NCBI RefSeq assembly: GCF_053078305.1
Contig: NZ_CP166879.1
Reading direction: 5' to 3' (one strand)
DNA: 64,000 nt
In this document: piece after piece, positions 37,255 to 43,030 of the stretch
Layout: each line of letters opens with the position of its first letter
Position numbering within the stretch: the first letter of the stretch is position 1
The notes under the pieces: model-generated
Seen by the model: the letters and a program-made list of their open reading frames with translations, nothing else
The model's database searches: none
Told to the model about the DNA's origin: nothing
Made by a program: the position numbers and the translations under genes

Positions 37255-39312
37255 ATGAATATTATGACGTCCAAATGGGTTCAACTATCATCAATGCCCG
37301 GAAACTTTACCGTTAAAGTTTCCGGTGGTACAGCGGCATTTCTTGAGGCTCCTTTTCCTCCGGCTGAAACGAAAGGAGGAATGACATTTGCTGACTGTCT
37401 CATCAGTTTTAATACACAGGATTGCCTGTGGGTAAGGCCAGTATCCGGTGATCCGAACGTGGAAATTACCGGAGCGGGTATTGGTGCTGTCATTCCGTTA
37501 AGTGCTGATGTTGCCGGTACTACTGAACCGTCAGACTGGGATAATGCTGAAACACATACCCGTCCGGCAGGAAATGAAACGGCTTCCAGCTCCCCTTCCT
37601 GGTATTACGTGATTGTTATAGCCGGTCAGTCCAATGCTTCATCTTATGGTGAAGGGTTGCCCCTGCCGGATTCTTATGATCGTCCTGATCCACGTATTAT
37701 GCAGCTGGCACGCAGGAATACACAAACCCCCGGAGGTATTCCCTGCAAATACAATGAAATCATTCCAGCAGATCACTGCCTTCATGATGTTCAGAATATG
37801 AGTCTGCTGAACCATCCAAAAGCAGACCTGAAAAAAGGGCAGTATGGTTGTGTGGGTCAGGGACTTCATATTGCGAAAAAAGTATTACCGGTGATTCCTG
37901 CTGATGCCGGGATTTTACTGGTTCCCTGTGCCCGTGGCGGCTCTGCTTTTACAACCGGCGCAGTTGGCTCATTCGATCCGGCAAGTGGTGCAGCCGAGGC
38001 GTCACTACGCTGGGGAGTGGATACCCCACTGTATCAGGATCTTGTCAGTCGAACGAAAGCGGCACTTGAGGCGAATCCAAAGAATGTGCTGTTATCTGTC
38101 GTATGGATTCAGGGGGAAGGAGACCTTAAAGCGACCCCGGCCCAGCATGGTGCCCAGTTTACTGCGATGGTGAAAAAATTCCGTGCGGATCTTGGTGCTT
38201 TCTCCGGTCAGTGTATTGGTGGTTCATCAGACAGTGTGCCGTGGTTATGTGGTGACACAACCTATGACTGGAAAGAGAAGAACCCGGCGGCATATGAAAC
38301 CATTTATAGCGGATATAAAAACCGGGCTTCCGAGAACATTCACTTTGTTCCACTGATGCACGATGAGTTCGGTAATAAAACCGCGACCAACCTGCCGGAG
38401 CACGACCCGGATATCGCTTCTGCCGGGTATTATGGTGCGGAATCACGGGGAGATGGCAACTGGACAACAGCATCCAGGGCAACCCATTTTAGCTCCTGGG
38501 CGCGCCGTTTTCTGGTCTCAGATCGTTTTGCATCAGCAATTCTTAAATATGCAGGTCTGACCTCTGCATTTATTGCCGGTGTGGCCCCTGATGGTGAAGC
38601 CCTGCCTCAGCCCGCGCCGGGTGGAAAACCGGAAGCTCCGACAGGTAGTCAGCCAGGAAGCAGTGAGTCCCCCCAGCCGACATCCCCGTCACTCCGTACG
38701 CTGCTTTCACTTAAAGCATCAGCAGGGGAAGCCCCGGCTCAGGGATGGAAAATTACAGATGGTACAATCCAGCTGACGGACGAAGGTAAAGCGCTGACCG
38801 TATCCAAACAAAGCGGAAAAACCTGGTCACTTACCCATGCGACCAGTGCTGCCGGAGAGCTGTTGCAGCATGGTGGTCAGTTGACCTGTAAATTCCGTCT
38901 GTCAGGTGAAGTAAAAGAAGGCCAGTTTGCTCTGGGTATTTACCTCCACACCGATACGGTCCCGGAAGGTGTAACCATGAGTGGTACAGGCACACCGTTC
39001 CTGATGGCGTATTATCTCCAGACAACAGGCGGCCAGTTAAATCTGATGCACCATAAAACAGGGGGGAATACGAAACTGGGATCATTTGGAGCCTACAATA
39101 ACCAGTGGCATACACTTGTCCTGAAGTTTACGGCGGGAAGTGCCCAGGTAACGCCTGTGCTGGATGGCACTCCGGGCCAGGCATTCCAGATGGTGAAAGA
39201 TGCACTTTCCCCTGCCAAAGATACGCTGACACTGACAGATGTCACCAAAGGGGCAACTTATGGCGTGTCTTTTGAGAGCGTTGTCCTTGAGGTTAATACC
39301 CCTGCGGCATAA
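37255..39312 (+). CDS. NanS-like SGNH esterase (putative 9-O-acetyl sialic acid esterase) with C-terminal extension
   Basis: 685 aa; residues ~115-430 closely resemble recalled E. coli NanS/YjhS (YYVIVIAGQSNASSYGEGLPLPDS…DTPLYQDLVSRTKAAL…CGDTT…DRF); ~250 aa extra C-terminal domain. Confidence 0.7.
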   Translation: MNIMTSKWVQLSSMPGNFTVKVSGGTAAFLEAPFPPAETKGGMTFADCLISFNTQDCLWVRPVSGDPNVEITGAGIGAVIPLSADVAGTTEPSDWDNAETHTRPAGNETASSSPSWYYVIVIAGQSNASSYGEGLPLPDSYDRPDPRIMQLARRNTQTPGGIPCKYNEIIPADHCLHDVQNMSLLNHPKADLKKGQYGCVGQGLHIAKKVLPVIPADAGILLVPCARGGSAFTTGAVGSFDPASGAAEASLRWGVDTPLYQDLVSRTKAALEANPKNVLLSVVWIQGEGDLKATPAQHGAQFTAMVKKFRADLGAFSGQCIGGSSDSVPWLCGDTTYDWKEKNPAAYETIYSGYKNRASENIHFVPLMHDEFGNKTATNLPEHDPDIASAGYYGAESRGDGNWTTASRATHFSSWARRFLVSDRFASAILKYAGLTSAFIAGVAPDGEALPQPAPGGKPEAPTGSQPGSSESPQPTSPSLRTLLSLKASAGEAPAQGWKITDGTIQLTDEGKALTVSKQSGKTWSLTHATSAAGELLQHGGQLTCKFRLSGEVKEGQFALGIYLHTDTVPEGVTMSGTGTPFLMAYYLQTTGGQLNLMHHKTGGNTKLGSFGAYNNQWHTLVLKFTAGSAQVTPVLDGTPGQAFQMVKDALSPAKDTLTLTDVTKGATYGVSFESVVLEVNTPAA

Positions 39313-39584
39313 TCGTGACGGCCGGGAATTTATCCGGCTGTAACATCAGTTAATAAGAGTGAGGCTTATATGACATATATAAACGTCTGCCTGCTGTATT
39401 TCTGCACGGTGGTTTGTTGTCTGTTGCTTGTCAGCGGTGGTTATAAAATTATTCGCAATTATTTTCGAAATAAAATTGATGCAGCTGCCGAGGAAAAGAT
39501 AAAAAGCGGTGCTGTAATGCCGCAGCCGAAAGACTCCGGTCAGATTTAATTTTTTGTGAACCAGAAAAGGAAAGGAGAATATTC

Positions 39585-39830
39585 ATGCCAGAGATTAAAG
39601 GCACGGTTACTGAAGAGCTTGTCAAACAGGCACTTTATTCTGAAGAAGTGAACCGCGTGCTGAAGGCGCAGGTTCGCAAGGATTTTGAGGCACAAATCGA
39701 CGCATATGTTGATGAAGTGCTGGCCCGAATGGTTGGCCATTCTCCGGCTGAAAACAGCACGGAGAATGAGCCTCAGCCCGTAGAGCAACCAGAGCCGGTT
39801 CAGCCCGGAACTGACAGTGCCATGATGTAA
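39585..39830 (+). CDS. hypothetical small acidic protein
   Basis: 81 aa ORF with strong SD AAAGGAAAGGAG upstream. Confidence 0.4.
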   Translation: MPEIKGTVTEELVKQALYSEEVNRVLKAQVRKDFEAQIDAYVDEVLARMVGHSPAENSTENEPQPVEQPEPVQPGTDSAMM

Positions 39831-39904
39831 CAATACAAACCGACAGCTTCTCCTGTCGGTTTGATTTTCATGGGCGATGTATATACCAGTCAGAGGAAAT
39901 AATC

Positions 39905-40105
39905 ATGGACAAGAACAAAAAGCAGCCCGATACCAAAGGTCTGGAAATATTAAGCGCAGAAATTATCAATGCGCTACGTTCAGGACTTGATGAAAATACA
40001 TTACAGGATCGAAACTTCACCACTGCAATGTGGATAGCGATGCAGATCCTGTGTACCCCAAGATGCGCTATTTTTGCGGTTCGTGAGGGTCAGTTGACTC
40101 GCTGA
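39905..40105 (+). CDS. hypothetical small protein
   Basis: 66 aa ORF, weak support. Confidence 0.3.
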   Translation: MDKNKKQPDTKGLEILSAEIINALRSGLDENTLQDRNFTTAMWIAMQILCTPRCAIFAVREGQLTR

Positions 40106-40298
40106 TTGCCCGAATTACATCAGAAAAGCACGCGTTCCATAATTGCATAGCTGATGAATCACCAGCTGTATGAAAAGAGGTAAAGACACAACTGGTGGAT
40201 GTCATTGCTGCAATTGTGATATCAGCTGCAATTCGCGCAGCCTGTAACTTTTGGTCGGTGGTCAGTTTATCCATTTTCTCCTGCCTGAACAGATGCAT
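40068..40298 (-). CDS. hypothetical small protein
   Basis: 76 aa ORF on the opposite strand overlapping the previous ORF; only one of the two is likely real. Confidence 0.25.
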   Translation of the reverse strand: MHLFRQEKMDKLTTDQKLQAARIAADITIAAMTSTSCVFTSFHTAGDSSAMQLWNACFSDVIRAISESTDPHEPQK

Positions 40299-40529
40299 CT
40301 CTGCTTTACAGGAGGCCGGGGAATATCATAGGATACACCACGAGCTCAGAGTGAAGCATTGATGCAGTTTTTTACAGATTGACCCAGAATAGTTCGCGCT
40401 ATCTGAGTCGCCATTTATGTAGTCCCGAAGTAAAGCATTGATGCAAACTTGTCTAAATCGGCCCAGCATAGTTCCAGCTATGCTGGGTTTCCCTTTTATG
40501 TAGTATCCTGTTGATTTGAAACATACTAC

Positions 40530-40760
40530 ATATACGCGCGATCCTACCTTCACTGGATAAAAAGTCAATAAAATGATCATTTTATGATCGTTTTCACCAC
40601 CTAACTCTTCGTTTTCTTTAAGTAAATAATCACCGCCCTGAATCATTGTTGATGACTTTTCAATCTATTTGTTGTATCAATTAAACAAATCGAATCGATC
40701 GTTTTTGTCGATCGATTGCATGAGAAAGGCATCAACAACAAAGCAGGAGGTTATGCGGCC
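40530..40760. promoter_or_regulatory. putative mom operon control region with clustered Dam (GATC) sites
   Basis: GATC at 40540, 40575, 40586, 40697 and 40710 within ~180 bp upstream of com; Dam-regulated mom promoter in Mu is established knowledge. Confidence 0.45.
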
Positions 40761-40961
40761 ATGTATCGAAACATACGGTGCCGACACTGCAATAAGCTAC
40801 TGGCACGGGCCAGTTTCAGTTATCTGGAAGTAAAATGTCCGCGCTGTAAAACCCTCAATCAAATCACATCTCCGAGCGCCACAGAGCACCCCACATACAC
40901 AAGGAAATCCTGTCGTGGGGAACAGAAAGCAAGTCACATCCCGTATCATCAGCACGCCTGA
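40761..40961 (+). CDS. com: Com-like zinc-finger translational activator
   Basis: 66 aa from the ATG at 40761: [14 protein letters not shown]…[10 protein letters not shown], two CxxC pairs as in Mu Com; 3' end overlaps the mom start. Confidence 0.7.
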
Positions 40962-41652
40962 ACTTATTCGCTATAACGACAATATCGTTGGTTATGGTTC
41001 CCGTGAGTTGCGGGTTGAGACAATAAGTTGCTGGCTGGCCAGACTGGTTATCGTCAATAAACATTACAGCCACCGTTTCGTAAATAACTCCTACCTTCAT
41101 CTGGGCATATTTTCAGAACGGGAACTTGTTGGCGTAATGCAATGGGGTTACGCCCTTAACCCAAACAGTGGTGCACGCGTCGTAACGGGTACGCAGAACC
41201 GAGAATATATGGAGCTGAACCGGCTATGGATGCATGACTGTATGCCGAGAAACTCCGAATCAAGGGCAATCAGTTACGCGCTCAAGCTAATCAGGCAGCT
41301 TTATCCGCAGGTACAGTGGGTTCAGTCGTTTGCAGATGAGCGTTGTGGCTGTCTTGGTGTCGTGTATCAGGCAAGCAATTTTGATTATGTAGGCAGCCAT
41401 GAAACAATATTCTATGAACTTGATGGCGAGTGGTATCACGAGATTTGCAGGAATGCCATTAAACGAGGCGGACAACGAGGTGAACATCTGAGGGCTAATA
41501 TCGACAGAGCCAGTGTGCATAAGTTCCGACAGTTTCGTTACATCCGGTTTCTGAACAAGAGGGCCAGAAAACGCCTCAACACAAAGCTATTCAAAGTCCA
41601 GCCTTACCCAAAACCACAAACAGTTAAAACTGGTTTGAAAGAGAGTGAATGA
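40915..41652 (+). CDS. mom: Mom-like DNA modification protein
   Basis: 245 aa ORF (GTG start) overlapping com and located at the right phage end, the Mu com/mom arrangement; function by position and architecture. Confidence 0.6.
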
Positions 41653-41710
41653 GCGCTTAAAAACTCATTCTAAAACTCAAAAGAAAAGCGCCGATTTAGT
41701 ATCAAATAAG

Positions 41711-41764
41711 TTGCGTATCGGCGTTTTTCAGCGGTATCAAATGAAATGCAAATCGGTATCAAAA
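41711..41764. repeat. right-end transposase-binding repeats (attR-like)
   Basis: CGTATCGG (41714-41721), GCGGTATCAAA (41731-41741), TCGGTATCAAA (41753-41763), inverted relative to the left-end copies. Confidence 0.6.
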
Positions 41765-43030
41765 AAATCGCCGCGCTATACCCACCAGACTCATTCCTGC
41801 CCAGCCTACAGGACTCAGGTTACCGTAAAGAATGACCGCCAATATTGCCAGTCCACCCCATTGCAAAAAAGTATCAGGCCGGTAAAACGAAGACTTTTTA
41901 CGCGGCAGATAAAATTTCTGCATCCGTAAAAATGCCCTGCGTAAGACTCTGTTGCGTCTCCCCGTAAGAACGACCTTATCGCCTTTACGAAATAACGCTT
42001 CCAGTAATAACTGCTCTGCGGGCAGTAATACCTCATTATTTCTGGTCGCGCCTTCATTAACACGAATCAGGATTTGCTGGTTCTTATCATACTGATCTTC
42101 CAGATGAATTTTTCCTTTCACAATCAGATTTACGATATCGGCACAAAACCCTTTATCGTCGTAAACCAGCTTCGCATCGAGACGTAACATGCCGGGCGTG
42201 TAATCTGGCGGAATGACATCGGTTTCAATCACATCTACCGGCGTAAATTGCGGCCTGCGCTTCCAGAGATATAACCATCCACAAACCAGGAATAGACACG
42301 GAAACCAAATTAACAACGATGACGTGGAGGGTAAAAGAAGATGGCTGAAAATATTCGTCGTTTGTGGAGCCGGGGCATTGCTAAGTAACGAGTGAGGCCA
42401 ACGGTAGAGGACCGTGAAATCTTCACGATAAAACGGATCGCTGGATTCAATTCTTCCGTCCTCAAGGATGCGGCCATTTCGATATGTGTCGCCCTCTTCT
42501 CCAGTAAAGAGATCGATTTCGCTAAATGGATTACCCGCGATATCAGGGAACTTGAGTGAAAATCGGGTCTTATAGATTTCAAACGGCCAGTGGTTACCAG
42601 TCACGTTCCAGATTAACAGATCTGAATCTCCCTCACGCAGGAAAGCATTTTTAACCTGATAATGAATTTGATAATGATAGTCGCCTTGGGGCAAGAAACG
42701 TTGTTTATCGCCCACGACAATACTCATTAACCCGATATGCCAGTCAAGATGCCAGGGTTCAGGAATACCATCACGGGTTACGCCAACAATATGATAGTTC
42801 AGCAGTGCTGCGTCCCCATCAGGCTGCATCCAGAGTCGTGGTAAATCACGATAAAATCCGTGCTTAATCTGCTGATTTCGCGCCTGAAAATGAATGTTCT
42901 CTTTGATGTCGAGCACCCCATCCGGTTGCAGAGTGGCTTCAGAAGGGATCTCCGTGTTTTCTGCATAACTTAGAGATGATACAAACAGCCCTGCTATCAA
43001 CAGCAAAATGCAGCGAAACTTCCCTGCCAT
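41759..43030 (-). pseudogene. yciQ: yciQ 5' fragment (N-terminal part), truncated by the prophage; stop codon formed at the junction
   Basis: 423 aa ORF with signal peptide whose TGA (41759-41761) lies inside the phage terminal motif. Confidence 0.75.

Follow-up and report, generated by a model that had tools for sequence, protein, structure and literature searches.

Tandem hairpin units between convergent promoter-like elements upstream of com and mom in a Mu-like prophage: a candidate antisense RNA module

The DNA that we analysed, a stretch of 64,000 nucleotides from contig NZ_CP166879.1 of assembly GCF_053078305.1 (the window), comes from an Escherichia coli chromosome, its nearest genome being that of STEC2018-607 (99.9% identity). 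Its first two thirds, to about position 41700, consist mostly of a complete Mu-like prophage. Repressor and transposase genes (about 2.7-6.8 kb) are followed by the late genes, gin, a DUF6645/nanS-p-like gene (37255-39312), DUF1378, DUF826, com (40761-40961, plus strand) and mom (40915-41652, plus strand), with host genes 3' of mom. Between gin and mom, the genes of a DUF6645 esterase-like protein, of DUF1378 and of DUF826 form a cassette (37255-39830). We take the DUF6645 protein to be nanS-p-like; in lambdoid Stx phages a cassette of this kind typically follows stx. After DUF826, at 39836-39863, a terminator scan reports a hairpin of terminator type that has a T-rich tail on either strand, so that upstream late transcription probably stops before the accessory module described below. 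Prophages of this family sit in differing host genes (a FimD/PapC usher gene, oppF, bcsA and sorM, from the right flanks of L001, L002, L003 and L143), as the transposition of a Mu-like phage would lead one to expect; among the BLAST matches in E. coli, two fall on plasmid-classed records.

Upstream of com, positions 40350-40507 are made of two tandem units of about 79 nt, with a common layout: a GCATTGATGC box is followed by a U-rich spacer, then by a GC-rich hairpin and lastly by a CCyTTTATGTAGT tail. Unit 1 (40350-40428, plus strand) has its box, GAAGCATTGATGCAG, at 40353-40367, then the spacer, a degenerate hairpin homologous to that of unit 2 (40381-92/40399-409) and the tail TTTATGTAGT at 40414-23. 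Unit 2 (40429-40507, plus strand) comprises the box AAAGCATTGATGCAA at 40432-40446, the spacer, a strong hairpin at 40460-89 and the tail TTTCCCTTTTATGTAGT. The limits set by nhmmer are 40350-40426 and 40428-40507. A sequence-only reading of this DNA had noticed two near-palindromic motifs about 77 bp apart, at 40355-40369 and 40432-40446, each followed by related sequence. The pair is there, its second member exactly as placed and its first two nucleotides further upstream, which makes the spacing 79 bp from start to start. The related sequence belongs to a repeat larger than had been noted: 40350-40402 and 40429-40481 are 75% identical over 53 nt, and both units end in CC(A/T)TTTATGTAGT (40411-23 and 40492-504). 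Elsewhere in the window, whole prophage included, the box and tail motifs occur at chance level only, and conservation of the unit extends over about 215 E. coli records and to diverged phages; the paired repeat is thus far beyond chance.

The perfect 10-bp inverted repeat that had been described in the second copy, with a T-rich tract behind it, is also present. It forms the core of the unit 2 hairpin (40462-71/40478-87), is followed by TCCCTTTTAT, and grows to a stem of 13 pairs with G.U included (-21 kcal/mol). The terminator scan, which asks for at least five T in eight, scores this hairpin as terminator-like on the plus strand only, and the U-tract of the window, UUUCCCUUUUAU, passes it. 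The tract is broken by a CCC interruption (UUUCCCUUUU), and in diverged units it is reduced to UCCCUUUAUG, which by hand count falls below the scan criterion. Termination may therefore have a low efficiency, or processing may generate the 3' end. In unit 1 the hairpin is degraded and a good U-tract is lacking. As a whole, the two-module RNA predicted for the window folds well (z = -3.4). Rfam covariance models, searched over 38000-43000 with E up to 10, returned only chance-level matches (E at least 0.5), none credible in the units; one of these, to tsr24 (40483-40607), touches the tail of unit 2. Small leader peptides were sought by reading both strands of the units, with no conserved frame or start codon found, and the same kind of reading found no copy of the Com RNA-binding motif, GAG(N)2CC (PMC6483171). 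Pairing in trans between the box and the com leader was rejected, as it amounts to 7 bp only and is unconserved in the diverged phage L029.

Is the hairpin itself an object of selection? When the units are simply aligned with MAFFT, indels break the register and RNAalifold does not recover it. When the hairpins of 13 variants are registered by hand, in an alignment that is fitted to the structure, 94.4% of the stem cells are paired, against 27-45% in slid controls. Changes on both sides affect three pairs and eight cells (A-U to G-C or C-G; C-G to U-A), and at pairs 4-5 several variants have lost both partners at once. Covariation scores 0.199, as compared with 0.080 in shuffles, none of 500 of which reaches the observed value. 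The GC-rich stem-loop of the unit is maintained by selection. The clues as to which strand is structured are mixed, as expected if both strands are transcribed. In internal units, all the non-Watson-Crick cells of the core stem are C.A on the plus strand, that is U.G on the minus strand, a hint that it is the minus-strand RNA which is structured there, whereas in terminal units the outer stem gains G.U pairs on the plus strand.

The units lie between two convergent promoter-like elements. Rightward, P(+) (40305-40334, plus strand) consists of TTTACA, 18 nt and TAGGAT, with a predicted start near 40341. Its hexamers are invariant around a variable spacer, in a set of 12 diverse modules as in all 20 distinct modules that we collected; the length of the spacer, 18 nt, and a weak -10 are its weaknesses. 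Leftward, P_left (40568-40541, minus strand) reads TTGACT, 16 nt, TAGGAT. Its counterparts in diverged phages are TTGACT-16-TAAGAT (L029) and TTGACG-16-TATAAT (L030, L090, L100), with unrelated spacers and a consensus TTGAC(T/G)-16-TA(G/A/T)(G/A)AT. In L096 and L098 a leftward ORF takes the place of P_left. Another candidate promoter on the minus strand, with TATGAT (the complement of TATCATA), was discarded as poor, its best -35 being TTTACT at 19 nt. The predicted start of P_left is the first base of a third perfect inverted repeat, TATGTAGTAT...ATACTACATA (40497-506/40523-32, minus strand), the left arm of which is the tail of unit 2, so that the leftward transcript would begin with a 5'-terminal hairpin. 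The arms of this repeat are conserved around a loop varying between 16 and 19 nt, and its only variant pair (in L100) is G.U on the minus strand. At the other end, an inverted partial copy of the unit start, GCATCTCTGCTTTAC (40295-40309), is complementary to GTAAAGCATTGATGC (15 nt, 88%); it overlaps the -35 of P(+) and stands just upstream of the ribosome-binding site of the leftward gene. Finally, a GATC-bearing palindrome, AAAATGATCATTTT, lies in 40570-40590 just upstream of the -35 of P_left, together with a second GATC 11 bp away; to judge from these sites, Dam-dependent control may extend to the leftward promoter.

The leftward gene (40068-40274, minus strand) encodes a protein of 68 aa (MDKLTTDQKLQ...) and has a good ribosome-binding site. 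It is convergent with a small gene on the plus strand (39905-40105), the 3' ends of the two overlapping by 38 nt; both look real, the latter being protein-conserved in L096 and the former having its substitutions concentrated at third codon positions. In relatives the same slot is occupied by the gene of a zinc-ribbon protein of 53-56 aa or of a 101-aa protein, and L096 has no such cargo gene. As substitutions fall at third positions in one, while the cysteines of the zinc-ribbon protein are conserved, the leftward cargo genes are, by these signs, real. Pfam has no family match for the 68-aa and zinc-ribbon proteins, and the PHROG matches of all three cargo proteins are to groups of unknown function, without family assignment.

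This region is present in 213-232 of 5426 complete E. coli genomes (about 4%), many of them STEC. Two units are found in some 7 of 215 E. coli records, and one in the rest (about 97%). The single-unit form corresponds to the 5' part of unit 1 joined to the 3' part of unit 2, with the junction at CCCAG. We collected 20 distinct modules and 15 unit variants from the surroundings of Mom homologues (80 IMG/VR loci) and from one pattern scan. Two-unit modules recur in L030, the Mom of which is about 80% identical to that of the window, and in L090, L096 and L098. Loop types match across phages, with TTCGCG (window) or TTAGCG (L030) in unit 1 and TTCCAG or TTCCAC in unit 2. From this correspondence between diverged phages, the two-unit state appears to be old, and the single-unit forms would be deletions by recombination between units; some hairpins seem to have been exchanged between units as well (L010, L028). 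In the L006/L120 assembly, NN stands exactly at the CCCAG junction between units. This is probably a two-unit repeat that collapsed in assembly, and unit counts from draft assemblies may accordingly be too low.

More distant relatives delimit the family. A search with nhmmer found no units upstream of com in the more distant Mom-encoding loci L031-L083. Of two pattern scans of genome contigs, one gave no match and the other 19, all in unrelated taxa and about the number estimated by chance; a pattern scan of metagenomes gave no match. When a diverged module was compared by BLAST with phages and plasmids, Mu-like inserts in E. coli were the only matches. By these searches, the module is restricted to a small set of Mu-like prophages of enterobacteria. 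In four IMG/VR loci (L090, L096, L098 and L100), with the unit module upstream, com is followed by the gene of what looks by eye like a C5 cytosine DNA methyltransferase, rather than by mom; DNA modification genes of more than one sort may thus be under a translational activator of the Com type.

In phage Mu, the regulatory region of mom comprises the site of the activator C, sites for OxyR and Dam (GATC), and a divergent promoter, momP2. The units share with it a position upstream of com and mom, and the sequence-only reading had taken them for duplicated sites of a regulator, with Mor/C and OxyR as the proteins to assay. That they serve Mor/C or OxyR in the control of mom finds no support in the comparison with relatives. 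Ten IMG/VR loci with a Mom at least 97% identical to that of the window lack the module entirely; in the two of these that were read, L009 and L016, homology to the window begins only at about 40664, and the slot is filled by a different leftward gene (a 97-aa ORF in L016; the L009 counterpart was read in part). Mu itself has 95 bp between gin and com, and no module (AF083977). Furthermore, the units contain no GATC, and the top matches of the whole window to the OxyR consensus (14/20 and 13/20) fall at 40645-40712, beside com and outside the units. The duplication, for its part, is a minority state, as the counts above show.

A control site of the Mu kind would be promoter-proximal, carry GATC and an OxyR-like tetrad, and remain constant with the mom promoter. 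The units, 240-420 bp upstream of com, do not fit this description; the true counterpart in the window is a promoter-proximal region at about 40645-40760 (plus strand), common to module-less relatives from about 40664. It holds a palindrome, ATCGATCG-N7-CGATCGAT (40697-40719), with GATC sites at 40697 and 40710, beside the OxyR-consensus matches. To judge from these comparisons the units do not belong to the mom promoter: the stretch of about 40068-40660 reads as an accessory module, complete in itself and exchangeable, which is inserted after the DUF826 gene and ahead of the mom promoter. Close to its right end, 40637-40659 (23 nt) is 78% complementary to the com leader (40725-40747), part of the Shine-Dalgarno sequence included, and the RNA of 40630-40775 folds with this pairing (z = -4.1). 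The ribosome-binding site of com might thereby be sequestered in transcripts that read in from upstream, a second layer of insulation reminiscent of the fold-back inhibition of IS10.

Experimental evidence for a transcript comes from E. coli O157 Sakai, where the module, with a single unit, lies in prophage Sp18 under the annotated gene ECs_4996. Table EV2 of an RNase E-CLASH study (PMC5286369) lists a hybrid, 'asECs4996', with ascending, hence plus-strand, coordinates (coordinates in the two Sakai genome versions differ by 127 bp). The read, a single table entry, is CAGCTATGCTGGGTTTCAC-AA-ACAGATTGACCCAGCATAGTT and spans the two arms of the hairpin as they stand in RNA of the plus strand. A non-genomic AA follows ...GGGUUUCAC; according to the authors, such tails in RNase E-CLASH reads mark 3' ends present in vivo (PMC5286369), and the end lies here 6 nt past the stem. 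A transcript from the plus strand, which any cis-antisense RNA of this kind supposes, has thus been seen, in this one entry. The unit RNA is absent from the list of Hfq-CRAC (EcOnc) RNAs of Sp18 in Sakai, of which EcOnc37 is the only entry (PMC4104026, supplement). This Hfq-bound sRNA is encoded about 1 kb away on the other strand (NC_002695.1, 5077340-5077410, minus), at the 3' end of the Sp18 DUF6645 gene; its sequence is absent from the window, where the 3' end of DUF6645 differs.

The annotation of Sakai deserves a comment. ECs_4996 (154 aa; NC_002695.2, L143, 5078126-5078590; window counterpart 40268-40646, minus strand) owes its frame to a 1-nt insertion in Sakai, which fused an upstream frame to the zinc-ribbon gene, and in other relatives the frame is broken or unrelated. 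The PGAP calls of a 'frameshifted' or 'incomplete' hypothetical protein pseudogene over the module probably derive from it, and the real leftward genes of 53-68 aa are left unannotated. In the literature on Sp18, ECs4996 or the sRNAs of Mu-like phages we found no description of the unit.

How may these features work together? In the reading that we favour, and in which our confidence is evenly balanced, the unit is a small RNA of the plus strand, running from P(+) to the hairpin and antisense to the leader of the leftward mRNA, its terminator also shielding com and mom. From P(+), a small non-coding RNA would begin near 40341. Its body would, in most relatives, be one unit of about 80 nt, with the GCAUUGAUGC box near its 5' end, the U-rich spacer, the GC-rich hairpin and a U-rich tail, and the RNA would end just past the hairpin, where the 3' end is seen in the Sakai homologue. 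In the window, the hairpin of unit 1 has decayed and a U-tract is missing there; transcription would thus read through to unit 2, giving an RNA of about 160 nt. From the other side the stronger P_left would start an mRNA with a 5'-terminal hairpin (40532-40497), which would run antisense through the unit or units and encode the interchangeable small protein. With transcription converging through the units, the small RNA would be fully complementary to the leader of this mRNA, and would most likely control it by duplex formation and cleavage, by collision of the convergent polymerases, or both. The hairpin would, besides, insulate com and mom: P(+) points at them, and Mom is widely regarded as toxic if made at the wrong time. 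In this respect the earlier suggestion of a terminator insulating the mom operon appears partly right, as a terminator fits the covariation of the hairpin, its T-rich tail, which is confined to the plus strand, and the 3' end seen in the Sakai RNA, while the regulator-binding sites that it was thought to accompany find no support.

Other explanations have to be weighed. The units could act solely within the leftward mRNA, as 5'-untranslated or intergenic structures affecting its stability or translation, the plus-strand RNA being incidental and the hexamers of P(+) conserved for some other reason. The U.G cells of the internal units on the minus strand speak for this, as do the folding of unit 1 of L090 (-14.2 kcal/mol on the minus strand versus -6.0 on the plus strand), the G.U of the sole variant pair in the third inverted repeat, the location of the units of L096 and L098 between leftward ORFs, and the fact that the box pairs with its inverted copy by the ribosome-binding site, which is present only in the minus-strand RNA. 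We nevertheless find this explanation rather unlikely: TTTACA-18-TAGGAT, conserved with a variable spacer, is the typical pattern of a promoter, the T-rich tail belongs to the plus strand only, where terminal units gain their G.U pairs, and an RNA of that strand was captured with an oligo(A)-marked 3' end. That this end lies just past the stem, and that the scan calls the hairpin terminator-like, would also suit a hairpin which simply halts rightward transcription before com and mom, the RNA having no function and the box being a passenger. The general view of unscheduled Mom as toxic supplies a rationale, and the pairing of 40637-59 with the com leader and its Shine-Dalgarno sequence would be a predicted second safeguard. 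Yet conservation is highest in the box and the U-rich spacer, which precede the hairpin and of which a bare terminator has no need, while relatives devoid of the module do without any insulator, which argues that the terminator serves the module's own promoter; on balance an insulator and nothing else strikes us as distinctly unlikely.

Proteins could be the readers of the sequence instead. The box and the GAGCTC motif are DNA palindromes, compatible with protein binding too: GCATTAATGC is a perfect palindrome in several variants, inverted copies of the 15-mer flank P(+), and GAGCTC is conserved at the predicted start, so that the boxes, together with the inverted copy at 40295-40309, might bind a dimeric regulator such as the phage C/Mor or the host OxyR. 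Against such an operator, the window, with the whole prophage in it, contains no further copies above chance, which argues against a phage-wide regulator such as C; OxyR-like sites are best matched outside the GATC-less units; the module is dispensable for the mom promoter; the centre-to-centre spacings of 58 and 79 bp are half-integral numbers of helical turns; and the stem varies in sequence with compensation, as if structure rather than sequence were recognized. The chances of this explanation are, in our view, slim. As for a decayed or frameshifted protein gene of the minus strand (the MIQGGDYLLKENEE... frame), as annotated, with the repeat as an internal duplication, it has for itself the open frame of 154 codons across the region in Sakai and the 'frameshifted' pseudogenes called here by PGAP in other genomes. 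However, the Sakai frame exists only through the 1-nt insertion, its N-terminal part is unconserved in L029 and L030, a 79-nt unit is not a multiple of three, Pfam gives no match, and the pattern of conservation is that of promoters and hairpins. We regard such a gene as scarcely credible.

The antisense reading has precedents. Phages make cis-antisense RNAs from convergent promoters, as with sar against the ant mRNA in P22 and OOP against cII in lambda. These are also short RNAs with a promoter of their own and a hairpin terminator, fully complementary to the 5' part of the opposing mRNA, which is accessory or regulatory, with the promoters facing each other over 100-200 bp. The module differs from them in having no sequence relation to either, in that its RNA overlaps the leader and not the ribosome-binding site, in its function, which is predicted, and in being built of a repeatable body of 79 nt, with variable copy number and an interchangeable target gene. 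With Rho-independent terminators the unit shares a GC-rich stem of 10-13 bp, a loop of 4-6 nt, a T-rich tail on one strand and, by the single Sakai entry, an in vivo 3' end past the stem, but its U-tract is interrupted by CCC and weaker in relatives, and conserved sequence extends well upstream. A type III toxin-antitoxin system (ToxIN-like), which needs repeats of about 36 nt, a terminator and a gene for an endoribonuclease of about 170 aa on the same strand, was considered and rejected: the units are 79 nt long and usually single, and the downstream genes encode proteins of 53-101 aa, mutually unrelated and without a family in the Pfam and PHROG comparisons above. Closer in setting are the moron-associated sRNAs of EHEC, EcOnc01-03, AgvB and AsxR, at moron sites of O157 prophages (PMC4104026). 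They too have a convergent arrangement and end in a terminator hairpin, but they are lambdoid, located downstream of PR', 51-60 nt long, Hfq-bound and active in trans as anti-sRNAs, whereas the prophage here is Mu-like, and they have no sequence similarity to the unit. We found no Rfam family and no paper describing the unit, which in kind resembles both the phage cis-antisense RNAs and the moron sRNAs. One may go further, on decidedly speculative ground, and imagine an undescribed cis-antisense switch of Mu-like phages, variable in copy number and tuned by unequal crossing-over, which would gate interchangeable small genes, possibly with anti-defence roles, beside mom or a com-linked C5 methyltransferase; the odds seem to us to be well against so complete a scheme.

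With reference to genome annotation, these results call for a correction: what is recorded as ECs_4996, and as pseudogenes by PGAP, is better described as a regulatory non-coding module and a small zinc-ribbon gene. They locate the actual mom control region in this family of prophages, and point to a small RNA that is missing from the annotation of a prophage found in the genomes enumerated above, STEC often among them. If the antisense switch is true, it would add a Mu-like example to the moron-associated RNAs of lambdoid phages, and would mark a site at which small genes, their function unknown, replace one another beside an anti-restriction gene.
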